Of a stretch of DNA of 64,000 bases, positions 26,101 to 64,000 are shown piece after piece (position 1 is the stretch's first letter; every line of letters starts with the position of its first letter). A program made the translations under genes and the position numbers. This stretch comes from Aplysia californica (lineage: Eukaryota): NCBI RefSeq assembly GCF_000002075.1, contig NW_004797741.1, forward strand, positions 500,827-564,826. The letters are read 5' to 3'. The notes beneath the pieces were generated by a model. The model ran no database searches. It was given only the letters and a program-made list of their open reading frames with translations, and had not been told where the DNA came from.

Positions 26101-26777
26101 ACACCATACTTTTAAAAATAGTTGTAAGAAAAGCCAAAGTTTTGAGGAAAGAAAGTACCTGAAGTCAGTCTGTCAGAATGGAATATTTTTTTGGGGTCTT
26201 TTGTGGAATGAGATAAACTTGCACCGTCTTCTTTCATTGGTGACCGAAGTTTGGAGAGTGACCATTGAAAGTTGCATGCTTAAAAGATGTTATGACTTTG
26301 GGATGCTTTTTTCCCATCTTAATCTTTTATCATAGTTTCCAAATACTAGAGTGCCTCACTACTTTATCCCTTAAGGTTTTCTAAGAAAAGGTTTTTCTTT
26401 TATTCTGTGAAGAATATAGTGTTATGGATGTTAACATTGCCGGGAGGTATCATTCAGAATATTTTCAGAATTTCAGAGATAAATAAACATTCCCAAAACT
26501 TCTAAGGTCCATGTTAAAAAGATTAATGTAATGATCTGCTTTGTAGATATGATATCTAATGTTGCCATGAAAGTAGGAATATCATTTTTAAAGACTTTTC
26601 TCAACTTATACAACACTTTTACCCTTTGGCTGTGTCTACAGGACCCTGCCTATGCCCAGAAAAGGCACCTGCCCGGCCGGACTCTACATGTGCTGGATCG
26701 ACACGCTGACCCGTGACATGCCACCCATCCTCCTTGTGAGAGGCAACCAGACCAGCGTCCTCACCTTCTATTCATAG
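2078..26777 (+). CDS. SLC12A2: Na-K-2Cl cotransporter (SLC12A2/NKCC1-like), 5'-partial, 20 coding exons
   Basis: Spliced translation gives SLC12 hallmarks [67 protein letters not shown] and C-terminal [12 protein letters not shown]. All exons are flanked by AG/GT and the phases are consistent. The Na+-site motif ATLSS in TM8 places it on the Na-coupled (NKCC/NCC) branch. The symbol is the closest vertebrate family member, not proven orthology. Confidence 0.95.
2729..2856 (+). CDS. SLC12A2: NKCC exon ...[27 protein letters not shown] (TM6)
   Basis: ccccag / gtgagt; invariant SLC12 motif. Confidence 0.95.
3051..3313 (+). mobile_element. Diverged copy of the ~180-bp retroposon with an internal insertion
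   Basis: body match plus 3' hairpin GGCGCTCATATGACC...GCAAGCGCC and (ACTAAA)n tail. Confidence 0.65.
3329..3506 (+). mobile_element. ~180-bp SINE-like retroposon (family A)
   Basis: head TGGGTAGTTGGCGGGTGCT, hairpin GGCACTT...AAGTGCC, ACTAAAACTAAAAC tail. Confidence 0.85.
6458..6666 (+). mobile_element. Degenerate tRNA-derived SINE
   Basis: A-box-like TAGCTCAATTTG, B-box-like GGTTGAATCC, 3' hairpin CCGCTTTGATGACCTTATAGCATTGAAGCGG. Confidence 0.55.
7202..7917. repeat. 42-bp minisatellite, 17 copies, intronic
   Basis: GGTACCACATCTATCAAA(G/T)GATAAGTGTTCGATTGTTGCCTC at 7202 + 42n up to 7874. Confidence 0.97.
8024..8302 (+). mobile_element. Family A retroposon plus a second partial 3' half
   Basis: head GTGGATGGTTGGCGGGCGCTCTG; two hairpin-tail segments. 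Confidence 0.8.
9457..9759. other. Assembly gap (N) flanked by G-runs
   Basis: run of N. Confidence 1.
10162..10226 (+). mobile_element. Isolated 3' tail of a related non-LTR element
   Basis: GGCGCTTAAATGACCAAAATTGTGTCGATAGTGCCGTAAAAC followed by an A-rich (CAAT) tail. Confidence 0.55.
10927..11096 (+). mobile_element. Family A retroposon
   Basis: head, body, hairpin and tail match. Confidence 0.85.
11260..11548 (+). CDS. SLC12A2: NKCC exon [21 protein letters not shown]...CVLREANG plus Ser/Thr/Ala-rich loop (TM7, extracellular loop)
   Basis: ttcccag / gtgagt; IPKGT motif. Confidence 0.92.
12078..12184 (+). CDS. SLC12A2: NKCC exon APQYSSEDY...[18 protein letters not shown]
   Basis: tttcag / gtacat; CxYGL motif of the extracellular loop. 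Confidence 0.9.
12554..12661 (+). CDS. SLC12A2: NKCC exon [36 protein letters not shown] (TM8)
   Basis: ctccag / gtatga; conserved TM8. Confidence 0.95.
13504..13627 (+). CDS. SLC12A2: NKCC exon [30 protein letters not shown] (TM9)
   Basis: cctcag / gtaaga. Confidence 0.95.
14111..14212 (+). CDS. SLC12A2: NKCC exon [33 protein letters not shown] (TM10)
   Basis: tttcag / gtaaga. Confidence 0.95.
15015..15170 (+). CDS. SLC12A2: NKCC exon [15 protein letters not shown]...YVHHRKP (TM11-12)
   Basis: gtgcag / gtacgc. Confidence 0.95.
15729..15828 (+). CDS. SLC12A2: NKCC exon [16 protein letters not shown]...EHIKNFR
   Basis: ttccag / gttagt. Confidence 0.95.
16100..16834. mobile_element. Non-autonomous DNA transposon with TTAA target duplication (Kolobok-like MITE)
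   Basis: TTAA|GGGGAGAC ... GTCTTCCC|TTAA; 7/8 terminal inverted match; no ORF. Confidence 0.65.
16906..17017 (+). CDS. SLC12A2: NKCC exon [37 protein letters not shown]
   Basis: tcacag / gtgagt. Confidence 0.93.
17454..17588 (+). CDS. SLC12A2: NKCC exon GTQWENLRQ...HIKSFYS...GAQALMQ
   Basis: acatag / gtcagt. Confidence 0.9.
18022..18128 (+). CDS. SLC12A2: NKCC exon [20 protein letters not shown]...YLGVIH
   Basis: ctacag / gtaagt; GxGKxRPN motif. Confidence 0.93.
18183..18368 (-). mobile_element. RTE-clade LINE 3' fragment
   Basis: minus translation [13 protein letters not shown]...KTW...[16 protein letters not shown], then a TGATGATGA tail. Confidence 0.75.
18840..18946 (+). CDS. SLC12A2: NKCC exon [21 protein letters not shown]...QQDE
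   Basis: ttacag / gtgaca. Confidence 0.9.
19072..20315. mobile_element. Non-autonomous hAT-like DNA element with 6-bp TSD
   Basis: ATTTAT|CAGTGCTGGTAA ... TTATCAGCACTG|ATTTAT; 11/12 TIR; CpG-rich left part and internal (TAGATC)n. Confidence 0.7.
20448..20713 (+). CDS. SLC12A2: NKCC exon, low-complexity cytoplasmic linker [11 protein letters not shown]...[11 protein letters not shown]
   Basis: tctcag / gtttgt; open purine-rich frame; phases 1 to 0 bridge the neighbouring exons. Confidence 0.85.
21417..21492 (+). CDS. SLC12A2: NKCC exon [25 protein letters not shown]
   Basis: ttgtag / gtaagt. Confidence 0.95.
22186..22300 (+). CDS. SLC12A2: NKCC exon [24 protein letters not shown]...EQRQ
   Basis: ctccag / gtaaga. 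Confidence 0.95.
22689..22858 (-). mobile_element. Family A retroposon
   Basis: reverse-complement match including head ACCACACCAGAGCACCTGCCAACCACCCA. Confidence 0.85.
23147..23233 (+). CDS. SLC12A2: NKCC exon [28 protein letters not shown]
   Basis: tcacag / gtgaga; LLSKFRID motif. Confidence 0.95.
24074..24191 (+). CDS. SLC12A2: NKCC exon [11 protein letters not shown]...[15 protein letters not shown]
   Basis: tgacag / gtttgt; PWxxTDxEL motif. Confidence 0.92.
25234..25280. repeat. (GCAC)n microsatellite
   Basis: direct reading. Confidence 0.9.
25446..25513 (+). CDS. SLC12A2: NKCC exon [23 protein letters not shown]
   Basis: ctccag / gtaagt. Confidence 0.93.
26642..26777 (+). CDS. SLC12A2: NKCC terminal coding exon TLPMPRKG...[18 protein letters not shown]
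   Basis: ctacag acceptor; TAG at 26775-26777; canonical NKCC C-terminus. Confidence 0.96.
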
Positions 26778-26921
26778 TTCCTTCATGTCAAAGTACATGC
26801 GTGTATGCATGCATGTAGAAAGATACACACATACAGCGAATGCTGTCAGTCCAACAGTGTACTTTTAGGGACCATTCACTTGAAAACTTGCTTCCTGGCC
26901 GTGGATGAGATTATTTTACTT

Positions 26922-27064
26922 CTAGGTACTGTGTCAGTATCATCACTGTGCTAGATACTGTGTCAGTATCATATTGTGCTAGATACTGTGTGAATATTAT
27001 ATTGTGCTAGATACTCTCATAGTATCATGTTGTGCTAAATACTGTGTTGGTATCATGTTGTGCT
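26922..27064 (+). repeat. ~28-bp tandem repeat, ~5 copies, in the NKCC 3' UTR
   Basis: CTAGATACTGTGTCAGTATCATATTGTG-like units ~150 nt after the stop. Confidence 0.85.
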
Positions 27065-50300: not shown

Positions 50301-53300
50301 ATCTGAGACTCGTAGAACGTGCGCTTTTCACTCAGACTCTTGATGGTGGCCCGGAGACGCATCAGCTCTTGCTTGCGGTTATTTCTGTAGCGACGCTGGT
50401 TGCGAATGTCCTGAGGAGTAGACAAGACAACAAACAAGCATGAGTGCTGCTGACTTTACAGAGCCACCCGTAACAAAAACTATTACTAATTAGAAATCAA
50501 AATCACATACCGTTTCATAATGAAATACAACTAACAGTCCAAGGACACACTCAACAGTCTAAACATGAGACGAGTGACATTTCCGTCTAGCATGATCCTT
50601 TCAAGCTAACATAACACAGTCATAGCACAATTGACAAAGTCATTTATTTCAGGTGTCTAGGTATCGGTACGTTAAAAATGCCAGCTCCTTGTTTCCTTTC
50701 CACAACATAGCAGGGTTTTGTTTTCTTTATTAAAAATCAAATTATTGAGATCACTTTCACTCATCCTCAGGTATTAAGGTCGACTAACTGTCTTTTCAAA
50801 GTTTTCAGCTGGCAACAAAACATGACTTAGGCAACTGTGCTGTGACCATGACAATAAAAAGCACCTTACACTAGTCTACCCTTCAACGACACACACCACA
50901 AAAACAAAAAAAAGATACTGTAAACACCTATATTTCCAGAAGCTCAGGTGCGGTTTGCTCCTTCTATCCCTATACCACACTGCTATTGTCCTAATCTATT
51001 CCTCGCAAAATATGGTCATCATCTTGCTGGCTCACCATAACTACAACTCAAAATTATTATATCAAAAGCCACAGGAATAGACTACACATACCTGCACAAT
51101 GGAGTTGAGCAACGCCTGATATTTGTTTTGTTTGCTCACCATCCCGGCCAACTCCAGGCTTTGGAGGTTGGCTTTCACCTTGGTTTTCATCACCTCAATT
51201 GGCAACCTGTTTCAAGTAAAGAGAAACACATTGCTGCAAGAACGGCTATTTGGTGCAGGGAAAAAGTAAGAAAAATAAATTAAATCAATAGAGGAAGAAG
51301 AAAGATGGAGAGCCTAACAGAGGTGCCCACTAACCACCCACTCGGCAACCCTTAGCAACAATGTTGGAGACAAAGTTTCAGCCCTTTCCAACCTCAAACA
51401 TTTTTATTTTACCAACACAAGAGTCAGACCCATGGCCTCCTTCCAACTTACAAAGCTAAAATGTACCAATCAGGATTGAAATAAGCAAACTTTACAGCAG
51501 GTCAGAACTAGAACACGGCACATGTTTTTTGCCCCCAAATAATAATTTTTATACAACACACAGGTTAAAGCTTATCTACAAATATTCTCCAGGTTTGCAT
51601 GAAATGAGAAGAGTGCTGTACACTCTAAAATAAATCATAAAACACTGAATGCCATCATAGTTTTTTCATAGCAAACTCATTTTTCTTATCTACACATACC
51701 TTAAAAATCCATTAAAATGTCCAGTTCAGAATGCAACTCATTCGAGCGGCTGAACTGGCTGATCGACAACTGACCACCACTGACCTGGTATCCCCTAAGA
51801 TGGAGGCGTGTCTGACAAGCTTCTGGCCCTTGTCCTTCTGCGTCTGTGTGGCCTTCTTGTCGATGAGGTCCCGCTTCTTGACCAGCGCCTGATGCAGCTC
51901 CTCCTGCTGCTGGTTGCACGGAGCGTCCAGCACCAGCACCAGGTTGTCCCCCGGCTGGCAGGCGATCACGTCAACGATCATACGCTTTGTCCTACAGGGT
52001 GGATAAGATAGAGATATGACATCAATGATCATACGCTTTGTCCTACAGGGTGGATAAGATAGAGATATGACATCAATGATCATACGCTTTGTCCTACAGG
52101 GTGGATAAGATAGAGATATGACATCAATGATCATACGCTTTGTCCTACAGGGTGGATAAGATAGAGATATGACATCTACGATCATACGCTTTGTCCTACA
52201 GGGTGGATAAGATAGAGATATGACATCTACGATCATACGCTTTGTCCTACAGGGTGGATAAGATAGAGATATGACATCTACGATCATACGCTTTGTCCTA
52301 CAGGGTGGATAAGATAGAGATATGACATCTACGATCATACGCTTTGTCCTACAGGGTGGATAAGATAGAGATATGACATCTACGATCATACGCTTTGTCC
52401 TACAGGGTGGATAAGATAGAGATATGACATCTACGATCATACGCTTTGTCCTACAGGGTGGATAAGATAGAGATATGACATCTACGATCATACGCTTTGT
52501 CCTACAGGGTGGATAAGATAGAGATATGACATCTACGATCATACGCTTTGTCCTACAGCGTGGATAAGATAGAGATATGACATCTACGATCATACGCTTT
52601 GTCCTACAGGGTGGATAAGATAGAGATATGACATCTACGATCATACGCTTTGTCCTACAGAGTTGAGTAGATAAGTAAGAGATACACGTCAACAATCATA
52701 CGCTTTATTCTACAGGGTTGAGTAGATATGGAAGAGATATCACATGAACGGTCATACACTTTTAGTTTTAGTAGAGGTTTTACGGCTCTCACAACTGCAT
52801 AACATCATATGAGCGCCAGAAGACAAGAGGTGTTACAAGAGAGTAACAAATATAAAAAAGAAGAAGGGGAGATAAGGAAGATAGATTTTTCATAGGAGAG
52901 AAGAAGCAAACCACACCAGAGCACCCGCCAACCTCCCACTCATACACTTTGTCCTACAGAGTAGATAAGGAAGAGATATCAAGTCAACGATCATAAGCTT
53001 TGTCCTACAGGGAAGATAAGGAAGAGAAATCCATTCAACGGCAATTATCATATCTTTTGTCCTACAGACATAAGAAACAGAACAAATAAGGAAGTGATAC
53101 CTCATCAGCATTATAATAATACACTTTGTCCTTCAGAATAGGGAAGAGATACTGCAGTAATGTTAACAATCATACGCTTTATCCTTCAGAATAAGTAAAG
53201 AAGACCAGATGTCAGTCAAAGTTGTAGTCCCCTGATATTCAGGCTCCTTGAGAGGCAGGACCTAGAGATGAAGGAATGCCACATCTAAACTGAAATGAGC

Positions 53301-56300
53301 TTAAGAGAACTACACCGACTCGACTCGAAAACGATCATTTGGCATTGGGGAAAAGACAAGGCACAGAGGTCCAACGAGAGATAGAAAAGAACTAGGGCTT
53401 TCCAGGATCACACTCAAACCACCACCTATTGCATTAGCCCATCTATAAGTAGGGCCTATAAAATATTCAATGAACGACACTCAAAAAGCATGAATTAACC
53501 CCTTGAGCCCTGCCCCACACTGAGTAGAACTTGCCTGTCTTCTCAATAATTTAAATTGAGACAATGGGCGGAAAACATAGGTTATGAGAAAGAAAAAAAA
53601 CAACCCAAAAGCTTTCTAGAAGAACCAGAACAACAGGGCAGCTTTAGCTGTCAACACACTCAGTCCTAAAAAGCGTTCAGGAAGGAAATTCGTAAAAACA
53701 CCTCTAAATCATATATGATAAACAGATGCACTCCAGACAGCTGACGAGTCCCACCTTATAAGCAAAGACTTCATATCTGCTTTGTCATCTGTGTGAACTT
53801 CAAACTTGCTGGACAGCGTCAGAGAGATTTCCGTTTTCGCCATCTGCGAGCGCAGTGCGTCGTTAGCAGCTTCATCACCCGTGAGTTCTGTACCCAGCAG
53901 CTCGTCGATGGTCGGGGCCTCGCCCAGTTCCTCCAGCAGTTCATGGAGGGGATCGCCACCCTCGGGCGCAATTGTGTCTTGATGTTTGAGCAGAAGCTGG
54001 ACACACATAGAAACAGGTTTTTCAAAAAAGTTTTACTAAGTTTTTTTAACGGCACTTGCAACACAATTAGGTCATACAAGTGCCGAAGATTAGAGGCGTT
54101 GCAAGAGAGTAACAAACATAAAAAAGGAGAGATAAGGACCATAGATGTTTGATATGAAAGAAGGAGGAAACCACACCAGAGCACCCGCCAACCCCCCGCA
54201 ACACAGGAATGGGGGAAATTTGACAGAGTTTGACTGAAAGAGAAGCACATTAGTACAATACCAGTCACTGAAAATTGGGGGGGGGGAATAAGACGGACGG
54301 ACGGACAGAAACAACAGAATGAGCAAATCACAGTAATATCATGACACTACAAGGCTGCACACAGAGATTTTCCCAACTAGAACTGAAAAGCACACATTTT
54401 GCTACAGTTCTGCAATACAGTTGTAAAATGAAAACTTCATTGCTACCCAAGTCGGCAGTGACAAGCCTGACCTTGATACCTTATATTTTGCTTCGAGTTT
54501 TTGAGTTATAGTTACATCATACGTTTTATAGCGCTATTGACACAATATGGTACCTGATGTGTATCCACAATCTCCCCCACAGAGATGTACACGACTGGCT
54601 TGGCAATCATGGTGACATCACTGTACTGATCCACATTAAACCGAGCTTCTGGCTCCTCAACATCACACGCTGACAGGCAGTACTTCCTGCGGGGCGAAAA
54701 TATTCACAACTCACATCCGGATCCGATAGAAAATAAATTCAGATGTCTTTTACAAAATGTACAACATGTAGGAACATCACCATTGAAAAAAAGATGAATA
54801 GTTGAAGGAAGAAAAAAAAAAGAGATAAATCTTACAATTTAAATAAAAAATTACCCACATGATTAGGAGACAGATACTAATATTTGCAGTTATAACTCAG
54901 CATGCTGTATTTTCAGATTTCTTAAAAACTTAGTATTCTAGTTATTTGTTAGGCTCTTAGTTACAACTTCACTTTAGAGAGCATGAAGGAAAGAAAAGTC
55001 AAAACCTTTTTACCCCTTACTGCAAGCTCGTACATGGAAGATCTACCCTCCATCTCTGTGTTTACATTGGCAACAAACTGAGAAAGAATTCATAAAATCA
55101 AACTAAAAAAGCTAGCTCAGTATTCTGCCGGAGTTATTTTCATTAGTACTTACAGAACAAATCTATGATGAAATTATATGAATGTCACAAACTCTTACTT
55201 GAATTTTTCATGGGCGTTTCTGATGTAGTCATTCATGCTGGCCAAGTACGCACTCTCTCCCCCAAACTGAGAAAAAGTCAACAAAATTAAGACATTTTAA
55301 TCGCTCACAACACACAGAAACTATTGATACTCTTTCCTTTCGAAGACAACAACTGTAAATTTCAATGACATCAGTTTGACTTGATTTTGGCTAGAATGTC
55401 TTATGACAAAATTTATTCACAGGAAAGAAATGTACAATGGTCAGGAAAAGCAAACAGCATGAGCAGAAAAGCTTTTCTTTCTGCTGTACTGATGGACTGA
55501 TTTTAAAAAATTGAACTAACAACACTCTGTTGATCTCTAAATTTACAGAGAACTGCTGTTTTCCTTCACGGAATGAATGAATGATCATTGCTTATTGGAC
55601 TTGTCCACCACTACACATATAAAATAAGGAGAAAACAGACATCAGTGCTTGAAAATCCTGATATATCCAAATCAACTATGACAAGCCACAGCAGCATTTG
55701 CGTGTACGTGTCTACATATATACGTATATAGAAACATACATACAAACTTCATACCCAAAAATGCCCACACTGCCACACCCACACAAATTAAAAATTTTAG
55801 TTTTTCTTTCCATTGCGTAAGATCTCATTATCTCTGTTTACAGAATTTAAACTAAATGAACTCTATGATAGCGCTATAGACTTTCAAACTACAAAAACAA
55901 GACAACAAACAAGAGAAAGTAAAGTGTAAAAGTCACATCCATTGAAAATGTTAACACCATTCATTCTCGTTCTGCAGACAGCAACTACTCCAAATAATTA
56001 ACTTTTTTTTTAAAAGACAGGAATTTCTCATTACAAAGACGCTTACTCACCCCTTTGTTAGAAGCTGCAAACTGTAATATTTTGGCGATGGAGCCCAGGT
56101 TACGCCTCTGGTCACTGCTGAGAGCTTTCTCCGCCCCGACGTTGATGATGTCAAAAGCATCAGGGGCCACAATGGCCGAGTTGATGTAGCGGTAGTACAG
56201 CAGGTTGCCAACAATCTGTGAACAGATTTGTTTCAGTTTAACTTTATTTTTGTTTTTTTCCCTTCCTTGTGGGGCACTGAATCTAACCACCTTCAACTTT

Positions 56301-57911
56301 AAAAACTCGGAAGGCAATTTCAAAGATACACTGTACACTGGTCTACTTGTAAAATAAACCAACAACATCAATTTAGATTGATATCTATGTATCTTTCAAG
56401 TACAGGCTTTGATGCATTGATGTCCCTTCCACACAAACATATCACAAAGATCACAGAATCACCACAACTCAAAATATCTGTGTAAATCCTACAACCTGGC
56501 ACCTGCCATTCCGACTTAAACTTGGTAGATCCAAATAATAACTTTCCACTTATTTGTCGCACATGACATTTTTTTGCTACGTTAACTTCTAGTACATCTA
56601 TAATGATTCCCTACTTTTTTTTCTCAAATGGCTATTTTATAGATTGCAGTATGATGCATGCCCGCTCATTTAAAGGTAAACAATATTTTCCACCATCTTA
56701 TTACCTATTTTGAGTTCTAACATTGTGAGAATGGTAATTTGTATTTTCAGAAGAAAAAAAAAGGTCTTTCATGGGCATCAGCAAATAAACTAAAAGGCTG
56801 AAACGAAAGTCCCACTTAGGAACCGAACTTAAAAAGCTTTCAAATTCTTTCAAAATCCAACAACTTCATACTGCTGTGATGTCAATGATAAAACTGTTGC
56901 TAAAATTAAGAAAAAATACAGAACAGCCACCTTTAAAACATCTTTTTCTGGTGCATCTGGGAACTTCTTCAACAGGCACTCCCTCATTACTTTGGCCATG
57001 TAACGCATCCCGTACCTGATGGAACAAATGAGAAAATATTCTTTAATTTTGTAGACTAGCCAGATCCACAGTACCTCCAAACATGTAATAGAAAAAGGAC
57101 AGTGTCTCCCTAACACAGAAAAGGTACAGTACAAATTTATCAATAAGACTTTTACAGACTTGTCTTTCTAAACCACATGCATAGAGTTCTTTCTTTTTTA
57201 AAGTAAGTTCTTTGAGTCATATGTGCTGAAAATCATTCACTAATAACTGAAAGACCTTTTCTCGCTAGGCACAATGGCCAACATTTAAAAAAGAAAAAGC
57301 AGCATTCACTAAACAGTTTTATTTGAGAAAACACCAAGCTTATTTTGTCATCACCTCCAATGTGACAAATAAAGTCCCGTTATATCAGATATATAGAATA
57401 CAAATTGTAGAAACATATTCAGCGTCAACCTTTCAACGACAGCAGCACTCCTGTAACATTTTCTACAAATTCAATACTCATTTTGACTACTCTGAAGCTA
57501 CAGATAGTGAACTCACGGGATGCTGTCTAAAGAAGAGAGGATCTTGTTGAGGAAACGATCTGTGACTCCCTGCAGTCGCTTGATAGTTTCTTCTATCTGT
57601 GTACGGACTTCTTCATGTTTAAGGGCTTGTTCCGTTGACACATCATATGGCAGACCGCTGCAACAGCAAGAATAGGAAGCAAGGGTCAACACACACTTTT
57701 ATTCACAAATTCAGATCTCTAAGAATAGACAAGACACATACAAAACAGGAAGTACTATTGGTTAAAAGAAAGGTACACAATTGCTGGAATTTGTAGGTTT
57801 GTTCGTTTCAAGGCTGAAGTGTTTACTTCTAATGTAAAACAGACCACTCAGAAGACCTAGTGTACTTTTTTCTCTGCGTTATTTAATGAGGGAGGGAGGG
57901 AGGGAGGGAGG

Positions 57912-57942
<31 letters not shown>

Positions 57943-60900
57943 CACAACTCATGAGTGTGTGTTAACAGCAAGACCAATAGTCCCCCCACCTGGCTTTGCC
58001 AGTGCTGGACTCTGTCTGGTTGACCCAGGCCTTGTACACCTCCACAGGGTTAGTGTTGATGCGCAGATTTCTGTCCTCGATGACGCTGGTGATCAGAGGA
58101 CTCAGCATCTCCTTCAGGGCATTCTGGCCACGCTGGTTCCTGAACAAACATGAAAACAGACCAAAAATATCACATCAGCGCCAACACAACAAACTGCAGT
58201 GGGTGCTATTCTTTTCTAGATAAACTTTTGATGCATTTTCCAATTGGTTATCTTAGTACCCCTTTCATTGACAAACTTTAAAAGACCACTCTCTACCGCA
58301 TTGAGTTGATTTTGAAAGGTATAAAAGCACAAAAGTTGCATGATAAATAACATTACTTTTCCACAGTTTGGATGTAATGGAAGTTGTTTAATGCAGAGTC
58401 CGCGTTCTAACTGCTGGATTTCACCTTGAACAGATTAAGACGATCAAAAAATTATTTTTTTTAATTTCGAAGGAGCAGACCACAGAACATCTATCAACCA
58501 CTTGCTATTGAATAATGGGCTGTACTTTTAATTCCTTATGCCATAGAACACAGCCATAAAAATTCTATTTCTGACACATGATGGTGAGTTTAAGGTATAC
58601 CTGAAACTAATTTCTGATCACAAAGAGTAAATTTCTTTACTATAAAAAAAACCCCTGTATCTTACACAAATACTTGAGTTCTCTCTCACTCAGATACAAA
58701 TACAGAGACAGACATCTCTCTCTCTCTCCCTCTCCCTCTCTCACTCACACACACACAGAAACACACACCTGTTGAATCCCACTATCATCTTCACTACCAA
58801 TGGATTGCCTGTGACGATGTCTGTCATCTTGTCAACCTTGGAGCTGAGAACAAAAGCGAAAACAGGTCAGTCAAATATAGGTCAGAATCATCAGTTATAA
58901 CAGTCGTCTGAAGATTTGACTCATGCATGAACACAAAATAAAGTATAAGTTAGTACAGAGTCGAGGTGAGTTTGGAAATTTTACGCTCATACGCTTATCT
59001 AAACCCCCACCCCCACCCCAAAAAAAACAATACTAATTTTGATATGATTTCAGTAGACAAAATAACAGGGTCTAACTGGCTTTCTTTTCTTTAACAAAAA
59101 AAAATATTTTGATACAATTTTTGGAGTCAAATTTCATTATCAGAATTTATCTCCCTGATTATCAAACATAACTAAAAGAAGCTATATTAGATTCATATTT
59201 TTAGATTTTTCATATTAAAAAAAAAAGAAATTATGCTAATTTAGTCATATGCTCCTTCATGAAAATATACAATGTATGATTAAAAAAGGAAGAAATCGTA
59301 TGTTATTACATTTTACTATAAAAATTACCATACAGCCTATCCAAAGCTTTGACCTTGATAAATTGTATCATGTATAAATGGTGGTGATAGGAAATTGATT
59401 CCGACTCCTGCATTTAATTTTTTTCATCAAATGATTACGTTTTCATTTTTTTAAAATGTTTTAAAATATTCATCTCTGCAGCGTGAGCACAATACACGAA
59501 CTACACTTTTTACAATAATACAAACCTAATGAATGTCTACCTATTCTCACAGCCATGTCAAGAGATCTCAGCTACATGGGATGTGTTATTATCTTTTTTT
59601 GTTTTTTGTTTTTTCAAATTAATAATTCTTTGGCCAAAAATACACAAAATTTTCAATGCACTGACTACTAAGAACATCTATTGAACATGGAGACAAATGG
59701 AAAAAATTAGTAAGCTTCAAATGCAATGGTTTAGAACAGCCGGGATAAATTCACGAAACTGCTGCATCAGAAATTAAAGTTTACCCGCTGGTGTAGGTAT
59801 CTTAAAAAGCATTTTTGGAAAATAACCGGTTATTTACTGTTTGACTATCATAAATTACAATCTCTTCAAAAAAGGCACCAATGCCATGAGGCGCGTTCTC
59901 TCGCAAAAAACATTTCCATATAGAGAGCGTTAAAGCCATAATTATGAGAACAGTCTATCAAGACAGCAGAGACAATGCACCAACACCACATCAAGCTTGA
60001 CAAACACTTCATGAAACCATCGCTAAGATAAAACAACCAATAAAAACTCTGCCATTGTTGATGACGCTGCTGCTGTAGTTGCAGTTGTATCTGTCACAGC
60101 TGTAAGAGCTAACAGTAAGTTGAGCACTAATTTAATGGCAAGTCAGCACCACAAGGCAACATTTTGCAATGAACATATCATCGCTGCTGCAAGCAAGGCA
60201 GTTAAGTCCAAATTTTGAGAATTTTCCACTTTCACACACTCTCAAAGCTCTATCAAAGATGCACCTTTTAACATCACCAAAATGCAGTTTGATGCTATGG
60301 TCAAGGTTTGCAATTTTCTTGCTTTTCATGATTTTTTTAATGGAAACAACACAACAAAACCAGTTGGGTTTTTTGTCTCTGACATAAAAAGTGCCCAAAC
60401 TGAGTTAAGATTGCTTGAGGCACCGACAATACGAACAATAAAAAGAATTAAAAGAGTATATCACATCTGAGCTCTAACATGGCGCCAAGGGCACGCAGCC
60501 CACTCCTTCACATGCCCAACAGATTATTCTCAGAATCACAGGATGCATATTTCAAAGAAGAAAAATAGAGACAATGGCATAGTCTCTACAGCAAGGCACA
60601 AGCCAGTAAACGAGAAGAGACACAGGAAAGACTCAAAGAATCAGAACACCAGCAGTTCCTGCCACAACTCTTAGAACAGCATCAACAGGAGAAATGCACA
60701 TAGCCCGATCTGAGAGAAAAAAAAAGTGTTATTTGCTTTTTTTTTCTCTTCTTTTTTTTTTAAGCTCGAAAAGGGGAGGGGGGGAGGGGGTGTTAACACA
60801 TCAAACTGGACACATGTCATGGAGACAGAGAGGCACTCAGACAAGTGGTAGAAGTAATGAGGAAGAAAGGAAAGGAGGCAGAAAAGATACACAAAACAAG

Positions 60901-63619
60901 TAAGTACCCCACACATACAACGGAGACAGAAAATGCCTTTTTGTTCAGAAAAATTACAAAGAGGTATGGTGCTGCCAATTCAGAGTACCCAAAACGTCCA
61001 ACACTGAGCACTTTTCTACTATTTTGAGATAAATATTTTAACACTTTGATACATATTATACTATACTATGAACTAAATTTCATAGGTCAAGACAATAAAA
61101 AGCAAAAGTGTAAGCCCTAATGAGGGATTTTGGGAGGGGTCAAATGTGTACAAAATCAAAGTGTAGACAACTCAACACATAAAACAGATGTTAGGTGCTT
61201 TAACAAAATTTTTGGTTTTGCCGAAGACCAACAAAAAAAATGGTATAGTGTTCCACTTTCATACGTCAGCAAACATTCCTACAAATGTAAAGAGTATCAA
61301 TAGCTGCACGCCTCTCTCCAGGCTTTCAGGACACAAAAACACAACCAAACAGTGACGTTAGAAGACAACACAGCAAGAAAAGCTTCCTACACTACTCATA
61401 AATTTTGCATTTTGATTTATTCCATACAACAAAGCAAGTTTACTGGATAATATTTATATCTTTCATTTAGAGGCCTAAGAATATAATATATATTATATAA
61501 ATATATATATAATATGCATCCCAAATGTTGAAGAAACCCCCTTTGTTGTATTCTACTGTATTTGTGTCATCATCTAAATACACGTCATATACCGTGCACA
61601 TATAGTCGTGCTAATTGTCCGAAACCACAGCAAGCTTATGCCACTTGGACAATCAAAGCTGAAAATGTTGCTTCACTTTCCTCCAATATATGGTCTACAC
61701 AGAAAATATGAAAGAAATCAAAAAACCATATACAGTTATTACAAAACCAAAAAGAAATTAACAATCCTGAATAGCCAGAGAAAATGAGAGAGACCAAAGA
61801 AACCAGTCACCATAATGGGACCTCTTCACAAAGAAATCAATGGAAGAAAAGAAAATTTATTTAGTAAAGAATAAAAAACAATGCATTGACAGACTGAGTG
61901 AAAATATGCAGCTTTTCTTGAGAGAAAACAAATTCAAAAGTAAGCAAATTGATGAAAAAGAAGATACTGTTTACAGCATTCTGAACTCTCCTTACTCTTG
62001 CAGGTCAACCGCCTAAGTGACACCAGTGCCATACACAAAGTGGAAGCATGCAAATACTTACATTCTCCTGCGAGTGCAACAGACATATATAAATGGCAAT
62101 GTTAAACATGGTATGTCAAATGAAGAGACAAACACTAAATACAATACTGGAAAGTGCTGTCATACAAGGAGAAAGGGGAAAAAAACAAAAAACTATAAAT
62201 AAAAATAATGCAATTTGGTGTTGCCTCTTCAGAATCCGAGATATAAATTTTGTCATGATATGCACAATACTGTGTGCAATGCAATGATGAATATGGATAT
62301 TGCATATGAAGGTTTGATGAACGAACGTACATTTCAACTATGAGATGGTGTAGATGAGATGCTGAGGAGTGATGCTGGAACAATGTGGTGAGGACATTAC
62401 TACATCTCTGGCAGGTTAGGGGCGAGCAACATGCAAACAAACCATTTGTTTGAGATGGGGAATTTGACTACACGAAGAGGTTAAATGATTGCATTTGAGC
62501 GTTTTCCAAAAGTATTAGACTAGATTCAAGGAACAAAATGTTGGGGAGTTAAATAGTAATAAACCTTGTAACAAAAGATGCAGTAGGACACAATGACTTT
62601 AGTCACTTCAGGTCCACAAAGAACCAGTTCAGTTAAACATTGGCTCCACAGGGGAAAATTATGTTAAGGAAAGGGTTTGGAAACATGAAATATTTTCAAC
62701 AGTCCCAAACAGCATGAAGAAACCAGTTGGGAGTCAGCGCTATGAGATTAACCACTGAAATAGGAACAAGGCAGAGGGTGCAATGACAGCCCATCACGTG
62801 TCACTGAAATGGCGCAACAAAATATGCCAATTATATCATCTAACTGTTCTATACAGAGTCTATAGACTGTATAGACTTACTACGACATCATTTTAGCTTC
62901 AATACCTCTTTCAATCCAAAAAGAACACAAGGTAAATAAAAGGTTGAAGCTCTCTTACATTCAAGAAACATAGAAACTTCTAAAATGGTCCGCAGTTCAA
63001 TCAAGAATGGCCTGTTGGAGATCTGAACAATTCAACCTGATACCAACTAAGCTTCCAGCACGCCCAGTCTATAGATCCTGTATACATAATGAAACACAAA
63101 CTGAAGCCACCTACACTTCCTTTATAACACAGTACAAACTTCAGCAGTCAAAGTTTTTCCTAGTGTCTTCATAAATACATCTATACTAAAAGACAAACTT
63201 TTCCACTTTTGTGCTCTCATGCACTCTGGCACCCTGATAAGCTCATTGCACCTCCTGCTCTGACCCCTACTCCCTTGGTAGTTCACAGAGAACAAGGACA
63301 CAACACGAGCCACTCACTTGATCTCCTCCTCCAGCGCAGTCTGGAACAGCTTGGTCAGCAGGTACTCCTCCCTCTGGTTGGCTCCGTAGTTGAACAGGGA
63401 GTAGATGACGGCCTCCATGAACTTGGTGGTGCGGGACTGGGGCATCTCGAAGATGAGCTTAGCCAGGTAGTTGGGACAGGTCTGCAGCAGGTAGAACAAG
63501 TGCTGGTAGGTCTCCAGCCGCTCGTGGTTCTCCTTACTGAGGGCCTTGAGGCCGCCGCCCCGCAGCTGGGGGTCGTCCGACGTGCGCTTGGTCAGCTTCT
63601 TGTTGTGGGTCACCACGTC
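47272..63619 (-). CDS. IQGAP1: IQGAP-family Ras GTPase-activating-like scaffold (GRD + RasGAP_C), 5'-partial, 15 coding exons
   Basis: Spliced translation includes YQHLFYLLQT.P.YLAKLIF, IVTGNP (Thr at the arginine-finger position), GNLLYYRYINSAIVAPD (YYR replaces RasGAP FLR), DIRNQRRYR, LHEKGV and DLLQLQYEGVAVMKMF..NVNLLIFLLNRKFYGK. AG/GT boundaries and phases are consistent. The symbol is the closest vertebrate member. Confidence 0.95.
47622..47983 (-). mobile_element. Older family A copy with a younger family A copy (47705-47875) inserted inside it
   Basis: TSD GTATAACAAGA at 47694-47704 and 47876-47886. Confidence 0.88.
48343..48451 (-). CDS. IQGAP1: IQGAP exon FKNVVFEIGATEDPGVFSVNAKFMGVQMDKVELVFQ
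   Basis: tctcag / gtcagg. Confidence 0.95.
48987..49167 (-). mobile_element. Family A retroposon with 11-bp TSD
   Basis: TSD CTTTGTCTTCT at 48976-48986 and 49168-49178. Confidence 0.9.
49274..49399 (-). CDS. IQGAP1: IQGAP exon KNRKSG...VTYTATRLHEKGVVLEIEGLPQNQ
   Basis: ccctag / gtgagt. Confidence 0.93.
50244..50410 (-). CDS. IQGAP1: IQGAP exon DIRNQRRYRNNRKQEL...YYNQYVKTCMDNLQQKT
   Basis: cctcag / gtaagt. Confidence 0.95.
51092..51206 (-). CDS. IQGAP1: IQGAP exon LPIEVMKTKVKANLQSLELAGMVSKQNKYQALLNSIVQ
   Basis: aaacag / gtatgt. Confidence 0.92.
51785..51991 (-). CDS. IQGAP1: IQGAP exon TKRMIVDVIACQPGDNL...ASILGDTR (shortest form; upstream in-frame acceptors exist)
   Basis: ctgtag / gtcagt; matches the IQGAP TKRLIVDVIRFQPG region. 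Confidence 0.9.
51964..52670 (-). repeat. 51-bp tandem array made of the IQGAP intron/exon junction (14 acceptors at exact 51-bp spacing)
   Basis: plus-strand CCTACAG at 51991, 52042, 52093 ... 52654; minus unit GACAAAGCGTATGATCGTAGATGTCATATCTCTATCTTATCCACCCTGTAG. Confidence 0.97.
52671..53192 (-). repeat. About 6 older degenerate copies of the same splice-junction unit, interrupted by a retroposon
   Basis: tcatacgcttt/gtcctacag-like cores near 52709, 52953, 53004, 53061, 53130, 53183. Confidence 0.8.
52763..52939 (-). mobile_element. Family A retroposon inserted into a degenerate splice-junction repeat unit
   Basis: TSD TCATACACTTT at 52752-52762 and 52940-52950. Confidence 0.92.
53755..53996 (-). 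CDS. IQGAP1: IQGAP exon LLLKHQDTIAPEGGDPLHELL...KTEISLTLSSKF...SLLIR
   Basis: gtccag / gtggga. Confidence 0.94.
54017..54200 (-). mobile_element. Family A retroposon just upstream of an IQGAP acceptor
   Basis: full-length reverse match; perfect GGCACTTG/CAAGTGCC stem. Confidence 0.87.
54554..54686 (-). CDS. IQGAP1: IQGAP exon KYCLSACDVEEPEARFNVDQYSD...KPVVYISVGEIVDTHQ
   Basis: ccgcag / gtacca. Confidence 0.94.
55199..55266 (-). CDS. IQGAP1: IQGAP exon FGGESAYLASMNDYIRNAHEKFK
   Basis: tctcag / gtaaga. Confidence 0.92.
56051..56215 (-). CDS. IQGAP1: IQGAP exon IVGNLLYYRYINSAIVAPDAFDII...QRRNLGSIAKILQFAASNKG
   Basis: tcacag / gtgagt; IQGAP YYR signature. Confidence 0.96.
56931..57015 (-). 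CDS. IQGAP1: IQGAP exon YGMRYMAKVMRECLLKKFPDAPEKDVLK
   Basis: catcag / gtggct. Confidence 0.94.
57517..57657 (-). CDS. IQGAP1: IQGAP exon GLPYDVSTEQALKHEEV...ILSSLDSIP
   Basis: ttgcag / gtgagt. Confidence 0.94.
57888..57942. repeat. (GGGA)n(GA)n microsatellite
   Basis: direct reading. Confidence 0.9.
57990..58139 (-). CDS. IQGAP1: IQGAP exon NQRGQNALKEML...INTNPVEVYKAWVNQTESSTGKA
   Basis: gttcag / gtgggg. Confidence 0.94.
58769..58843 (-). CDS. IQGAP1: IQGAP exon SKVDKMTDIVTGNPLVVKMIVGFNR
   Basis: tctcag / gtgtgt. Confidence 0.93.
62062..62067 (-). CDS. IQGAP1: Candidate 6-nt alternative microexon of IQGAP (GAGAAT)
   Basis: minus strand reads tgttgcactcgcag|GAGAAT|gtaagtattTGCATG; frame-preserving in a phase-2 intron. 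Confidence 0.55.
63318..63619 (-). CDS. IQGAP1: IQGAP exon DVVTHNKKL...LFYLLQTCPNYLAKLIFEMPQ...ALEEEI
   Basis: ctccag / gtgagt on minus. Confidence 0.95.
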
Positions 63620-63892: not shown

Positions 63893-64000
63893 CTTTAGTT
63901 TAGTTTTAGTAAGAGTTTTAAGACACTTGCAAAAGAAATAGGTCCTATGAGTGCTGAAGATCAGAGGTGTTACTTAAGAGTAACATACAAAGAAAAGGAT
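63893..64000 (-). mobile_element. Family A retroposon, cut by the window edge
   Basis: tail TTTAGTTTAGTTTTAGT, hairpin and body match. Confidence 0.8.

Follow-up and report, generated by a model that had tools for sequence, protein, structure and literature searches.

Neural microexons controlled by eMIC-type splicing regulators (SRRM3/4, Srrm234) are frame-preserving cassette exons of 3–27 nucleotides (nt) with a UGC near the 3′ splice site, an upstream AG-free zone and a strong donor. In fly, eMIC targets combine strong branch points with long AG-exclusion zones and a UGC close to the 3′ splice site (10.1101/2021.02.24.432780). The donors of mammalian eMIC-dependent microexons are particularly strong (PMC10250204), and the UGC is found in 74–79% of SRRM3/4-dependent microexons without being strictly required (10.1101/2024.09.17.613571). 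We describe a 6-nt cassette exon with this anatomy in the IQGAP gene of the mollusc Aplysia californica. The window (the whole analysed stretch of 64,000 nt) spans positions 500,827–564,826 of contig NW_004797741.1 in assembly GCF_000002075.1, and all coordinates are window positions. An earlier note, made from the letters alone, had proposed this exon as a neural microexon.

Three further systems offer comparisons. Across 20 species, only the exons of APBB1/2/3 (6 nt) and MADD (9 nt) have been confidently assigned as bilaterian-ancestral neural microexons; that assignment requires vertebrates and insects, and the same study reports frequent convergence at one protein position (10.64898/2026.09.05.749416). 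In that study's type I convergent neural exons, such as those of spg/DOCK3-4 (DHR-2 domain), unrelated exons have been gained repeatedly at a single position of the protein near a GTPase-binding site. NF1 exon 23a, which is skipped in neurons, encodes 21 residues placed centrally in a GAP-related domain (GRD) that is catalytically active, whereas the IQGAP exon adds two residues ahead of the finger loop in a pseudo-GAP. Both are alternative exons in a RasGAP-fold GRD, and exon 23a changes GTPase-related function (PMC7878752, PMC12352984).

Transcripts and splicing signals of the microexon

The minus strand of the window carries the 3′ half of the IQGAP gene (47272..63619; 15 exons plus the microexon, residues ∼936–1673 of the RefSeq protein P0121), which runs past the window. 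P0121 contains CH, four IQ, RasGAP-related and RasGAP_C domains in Pfam, the architecture of IQGAP. The microexon, GAGAAT (62062..62067, minus strand, phase 2-2), lies in a phase-2 intron of 4474 nt (58844..63317). The upstream exon (63318..63619) ends in ...EEEI plus AA, the first two bases of a split codon; it has a single match in the Aplysia genome and is 100% identical to A. californica IQGAP1. The downstream exon (58769..58843) encodes SKVD...TGNP... and contains the Thr at the arginine-finger position. Inclusion preserves the frame, replaces N with K-R-I and introduces no stop, and the length falls inside the 3–27 nt range.

Both splice forms exist in Aplysia transcripts. We examined eight of 24 listed runs, three as raw reads (X21–X23) and five as contigs (X16, X6, X10, X13 and X11); contig depth is a rough figure, and rare variants drop out of contigs. 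Run X16 holds an inclusion joint with the exon’s own letters at depth 26 and a skip joint (58843–63318) at 93.3. Run X6, from a different study, holds the two at 5.97 and 15.4, respectively. Only the skip joint appears in X10 (depth 62, in one 8745-nt contig) and X13 (depth 13.6); in X13 the upstream exon reaches depth 50, above the skip joint, with no other joint listed, possibly owing to a filter of the tool. Run X11 lists no joint, and X21–X23 have no depth on the two flanking exons and are hence uninformative on splicing. We take X16, X6, X10 and X13 as RNA because they hold spliced joints, none being recorded as such. Contigs show presence rather than absence, so the skip-only runs do not prove zero inclusion, and the comparison hints that inclusion differs between samples.

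The microexon is real, alternatively spliced and already in gene models. RefSeq isoforms X1 (XP_012941927.1) and X3 (XP_005105517.1), which are automatic gene models, read EEEI-KRI-SKVD, and isoforms X2 and X4 read EEEI-N-SKVD. The flanking exons translated with the microexon match P0121 (KRI) and without it P0001 (N), both exactly. The earlier note had predicted this very change from N to KRI and had proposed a search of RNA for the 6-nt insertion, which the contigs of two studies contain. Its expectation that standard annotation would miss the exon was mistaken.

Run X13 also shows intronic depth of 14–17 over 62010–62388, peaking just upstream of the microexon, with the rest of the intron mostly empty. 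This signal could represent a partly spliced intermediate, which no joint supports.

Around the microexon, the minus-strand splice sites and motifs quoted in the earlier note are found in the window letter for letter. The 3′ splice site is CAG (62068..62070), preceded at −11 by a UGC (62076..62078) that is a candidate eMIC (SRRM3/4-type) element by analogy with described targets (10.1101/2024.09.17.613571; 10.1101/2021.02.24.432780). An AG-exclusion zone of 65 nt (62070..62134) contains branch-point-like TTGAC (−52) and TTAAC (−38). Pyrimidines make up 62% of positions −40 to −4, and no UC-rich tract stands out. The 5′ splice site is GTAAGT (62056..62061), a hexamer found in one of the 14 other IQGAP donors of the window. 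At +10 lies TGCATG (62047..62052), a candidate RBFOX site and one of four such hexamers in the intron.

By anatomy, the microexon appears to belong to the eMIC-type class. Its flanks fit that type in the UGC, the AG-free zone and the strong donor, and its host, as in described eMIC targets, is a cytoskeletal and GTPase-pathway protein. It differs from the dissected eMIC systems in belonging to a mollusc and in having no prominent UC-rich tract, and is likened to them here by sequence anatomy. As judged by Pfam matches, the Aplysia genome encodes an eMIC-type domain. The SRRM_C model, which we take to cover the eMIC domain, matches two adjacent minus-strand open reading frames of contig G000:C323 in order (L009:2079-2702 and L010:7391-7795), with model positions 1–55 at 21 bits (E 5.4e-4) and 56–67 at 18 bits (E 4.4e-3). 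GT/AG sites join the two in frame, 45–50 kb downstream of a cwf21 exon (C323:603166-603240), and the cwf21 and SRRM_C exons together likely form the Aplysia Srrm234 gene. A whole-genome search for the SRRM_C family returned no match, a result that is uninformative for intron-split genes. RBFOX activates exons through a UGCAUG in the proximal downstream intron, the position that the hexamer at +10 occupies.

Dinucleotide shuffles of the host intron (n = 1000) indicate how often such features arise by chance. Bare YAG-(3n)-GTRAG sites appeared in 761 shuffles; 74 held a site with both a UGC and an AG-free zone of some length, seven a site with a UGC and a UGCAUG, and none the full feature set; the criteria were fixed after the site had been seen, and these figures are descriptive rather than a blind test. 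Across both strands of the whole window there are 60 bare sites, and the microexon is the only one with all features. An additional Aplysia cassette resembling the 21-nt exon of Haliotis and Gigantopelta (see below) was not found in the host intron. The two further candidates there, 27 nt at 62192 and 24 nt at 61766, are weak, do not resemble that exon and occur in no joint.

The insert beside the finger loop

The insert falls between the positions of human K1035 and S1036, where the Pfam RasGAP domain begins. As the earlier note had placed it, it precedes the TGNP loop, lying 11 residues before the Thr that replaces the arginine finger (T1049 of P0121, which aligns with human T1046). In AlphaFold2 models, the helix leading to this loop spans residues 57–78 without the insert and 57–80 with it. 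The model superposes on the IQGAP1 GRD (3FAY) with Z 40.1, root-mean-square deviation (rmsd) 2.4 and 376 aligned residues, and on a chain of the IQGAP2–Cdc42 complex (5CJP) with Z 33.2, rmsd 4.2 and 330 aligned residues. The new Ile lies on the same helix face as the preceding Ile, three residues past it in molluscs and sea stars or four in amphioxus, and would therefore prolong the hydrophobic face of the helix.

Published biochemistry constrains what such a change could do. The GRD of IQGAP has no GAP activity, even with a T1046R substitution, and its binding to CDC42 runs partly via the insert helix (PMC9408373). The affinity of the isolated GRD for RAC1 is extremely low, the high-affinity GTP-dependent site being the RGCT (PMC5159498), which weakens the earlier note’s suggestion that the insert tunes Rac binding. 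A role in tuning Cdc42 is plausible, and a role with Rac would be less so. Among 30 of 150 Ras-family matches in Aplysia we found Rho- and Rac-like exons and no whole Cdc42.

We consider it probable, with considerable reservation, that the eMIC isoform of Srrm234 switches the Aplysia IQGAP microexon on in neurons, and that its inclusion lengthens the helix before the GRD finger loop and fine-tunes partner binding. By default the microexon would be skipped, because it is too short for normal exon definition. In neurons, the UGC, the distant branch point and the strong donor would together permit inclusion, and RBFOX bound at +10 may help. The helix leading to the finger loop is predicted to grow by two residues. 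Because the GRD is a pseudo-GAP, the effect would fall on scaffolding rather than catalysis, through Cdc42 held in a RasGAP-like mode or through another partner.

Several observations count against this proposal. On the splicing side, 5 of 15 other exons of the gene also have a UGC within 30 nt of the AG, 4 of 15 have AG-free zones of 62–113 nt, and 2 of 14 other donors have a TGCATG in the next 100 nt; the UGC is itself neither necessary nor universal in SRRM4 targets (10.1101/2024.09.17.613571). Each SRRM_C half scores below the Pfam cut-off of 27 bits, and the gene is known here from sequence alone. A whole-genome Fox-1_C search gave no RBFOX candidate, again uninformative for intron-split genes. 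The included and skipped joints stem from runs without tissue labels, and the inclusion contig is the shallower of the two in both X16 and X6, as far as so rough a figure goes. On the protein side, the alignments behind the two models differ in depth (39 and 65 rows), and their confidence values are not comparable. The GRD binds wild-type CDC42 ∼100-fold more weakly than does the C-terminal half (PMC9408373), and the RasGAP-like binding mode is disputed. Finally, the site may simply tolerate inserts, because other lineages carry unrelated inserts of 7–30 residues there.

The strongest competing explanation is that the cassette is real and conserved, with an incidental UGC, and that it is regulated outside neurons (by RBFOX in muscle, or in another tissue) or modestly in many tissues. 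We regard this as unlikely, though not remote. The hexamer at +10 and the UGCs near five other acceptors of the gene suit it, as does the existence of muscle microexons regulated by RBFOX2, MBNL and QKI (PMC12064062). In the Pacific-oyster cluster, moreover, the insert is present in 7 of the 15 listed members. Against these stand the combination of features itself (a UGC, a 65-nt AG-free zone, a strong donor and a length of 6 nt, as in eMIC targets), the eMIC-type domain in the Aplysia genome, and the report that deeply conserved neural exons are mostly small (10.64898/2026.09.05.749416). Neuronal, eMIC-type control remains the preferred reading.

Recurrence of inserts at one junction

Comparison of IQGAP proteins indicates that the microexon junction is by far the most variable one in the C-terminal half. 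We compared 30 clusters with up to 15 members listed for each; 20 were chosen before the junctions were seen, and the other 10, chosen afterwards, include two selected for an insert in their representative. Exon boundaries outside Aplysia are inferred from proteins alone. Among the members listed, 18 of the 30 clusters, ranging from molluscs to tunicates, have isoforms that differ there; the junction ranked second in the C-terminal half varies in four. A two-residue insert occurs in 13 clusters, comprising gastropods, bivalves, cephalopods and sea stars. The earlier note would have counted a lack of conservation in relatives against the exon; at the protein level, the site is conserved in relatives. 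The junction reads KRI in Aplysia and Biomphalaria, HRT in Pomacea, ARI in Haliotis, Gigantopelta, Mizuhopecten and one further scallop, and DRL in Crassostrea gigas. It reads TRI in Octopus sinensis/bimaculoides and in two further clusters that group with Octopus in a quick tree, and TMI in the sea stars Patiria and Asterias. Amphioxus has an alternative three-residue insert (N-KTI-N), and Lingula has three extra residues in both of its records.

Upon inclusion, the junction residue shifts as a split codon would (N/K, Q/H, E/D, S/R), which points to a phase-2 intron whose position molluscs and echinoderms share. We also considered alternative donors or acceptors as the source of inserts in other species. 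A donor extension must start with GT and an acceptor extension must end with AG; R-I, M-I, R-T, R-L and K-T-I fit neither, and we rejected this source. Lingula (RRGS) is ambiguous in this respect, with no skipped form among its two records.

Longer cassettes of 7–30 residues, unrelated to the short insert, occur at the same junction in Haliotis, Gigantopelta, Babylonia, sea urchins, a sea cucumber, a brittle star, a crinoid and Styela. They are found in P0018, P0027, P0141, P0149, P0135, P0204, P0213, P0242, P0256 and P0282, in the same intron, and in Haliotis and Gigantopelta the longer cassette can be combined with the short insert.

No insert is present in the listed members from Littorina, Patella, Mytilus, Saccostrea, C. 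virginica, Elysia and unionids, nor in those from Owenia, Lineus and the cnidarians Nematostella and Rhopilema. The cluster representatives from Priapulus, Ciona, arthropods (copepods, Tachypleus, Blattella) and vertebrates likewise have none, absence from gene models being weak evidence. Of 339 IQGAP proteins, 60 carry an insert, 244 lack one and 35 are unscorable (fragments or divergent sequences). In one cephalopod, two proteins identical save for the insert are represented by 59 contigs with it and 15 without; either form can therefore dominate a run.

These patterns bear on the age of the exon. Inserts at the same junction, with lengths within 6 nt of each other, occur in both protostomes and deuterostomes (two residues in molluscs and sea stars, three in amphioxus), as a bilaterian-ancestral exon would require. 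We tentatively entertain an ancestral bilaterian neural microexon in IQGAP, lost in vertebrates and arthropods, as a minority possibility. Alternatively, the junction is possibly a hotspot of convergent exon gain. Like the APBB and MADD exons, the IQGAP insert is short (6–9 nt), in frame and placed in a signalling scaffold, at one junction in protostomes and deuterostomes. Unlike those exons, which are neural and kept in vertebrates and insects, it is known outside Aplysia from proteins and is not seen in the cluster representatives retrieved for vertebrates and arthropods. The 7–30 residue cassettes fit the spg/DOCK3-4 pattern of unrelated exons; the short inserts depart from it in that those of molluscs, sea stars and amphioxus end in a common Ile, which allows common descent. 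The place of this Ile on one helix face might stem from common descent, or from a structural constraint under which convergence is favoured.

A second alternative to a functional neuronal switch is that this end of the helix forms a surface tolerant of insertions, where a spliced exon has little functional effect and inserts across phyla are independent and near-neutral. The unrelated cassettes of 7, 8, 9, 11, 12, 14, 23 and 30 residues in vetigastropods, Babylonia, echinoderms and Styela speak for it, as do the listed isoforms from Littorina, Patella, Mytilus, Saccostrea, Owenia and Lineus, which carry no insert. It is harder to reconcile with the R-I dipeptide kept in gastropods, scallops and cephalopods, which is difficult to explain without selection, with the predominance of the included form in the cephalopod noted above, and with the much lower variability of other C-terminal-half junctions. 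We judge it improbable. A chance splice-site look-alike or annotation artefact, for which one could cite the abundance of bare sites in shuffles and window, is already refuted for practical purposes by inclusion joints with the exon’s letters in two independent studies, by the RefSeq isoforms and by the same insert in other molluscs.

Aplysia is a classic animal for work on synaptic plasticity, and IQGAP serves widely as a scaffold for actin and Cdc42. A two-residue splice switch beside the finger loop would be directly testable in this animal. With the event itself in RefSeq and its class well known, the recurrence at one junction across phyla is the more interesting part: the site is a candidate for what vertebrate-plus-insect criteria miss, or else a clear case of repeated convergence. 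In the literature searched on IQGAP splicing and molluscan microexons, we found no description of the exon’s regulation, conservation or function. The cross-phylum recurrence was likewise not found there; the 2019 eMIC paper or the supplements of 10.64898/2026.09.05.749416, whose main text does not mention IQGAP, may list the octopus or amphioxus exon. The main text of the Aplysia central nervous system transcriptome paper (PMC9282427) mentions neither IQGAP nor microexons, and six supplements of PMC5703972 do not contain ‘IQGAP’, which gene identifiers could hide.

Neighbouring features

A second, smaller alternative-splicing site lies within the GRD, where segments of 6–30 residues vary in oysters and Lineus (4 of 30 clusters; P0022, P0156, P0182 and P0297). 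It corresponds to residue ∼1228 of P0122 and to the window junction 56051/55266.

Elsewhere in the gene, a tandem array with a 51-bp unit in 14.5 copies (96% matches; 51974-52718, minus strand) spans an IQGAP intron/exon border. Its unit consists of a 3′ splice site and the first ∼30 nt of an IQGAP exon, which places ∼14 decoy acceptors before the real one at 51991. The array is open in frame (a 17-residue repeat), and RefSeq isoform P0121 uses the last copy only; the array could be a feature of the assembly or of allele length. Short interspersed repeats in IQGAP introns (60190-60335 and 63894-63932) are very deep in all examined runs.

An SLC12 (cation-chloride cotransporter) gene occupies ∼13000-27000 on the plus strand (Pfam SLC12 and AA_permease), its tail facing that of IQGAP. 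A 12-nt microexon look-alike at +14201 was rejected, the sequence upstream showing it to be the end of an ordinary SLC12 exon. Outside the window, a 13-residue alternative segment in the Aplysia IQGAP repeats, at residue ∼531, distinguishes P0001/P0121 from P0122/P0123 and separates RefSeq isoforms X1/X2 from X3/X4.

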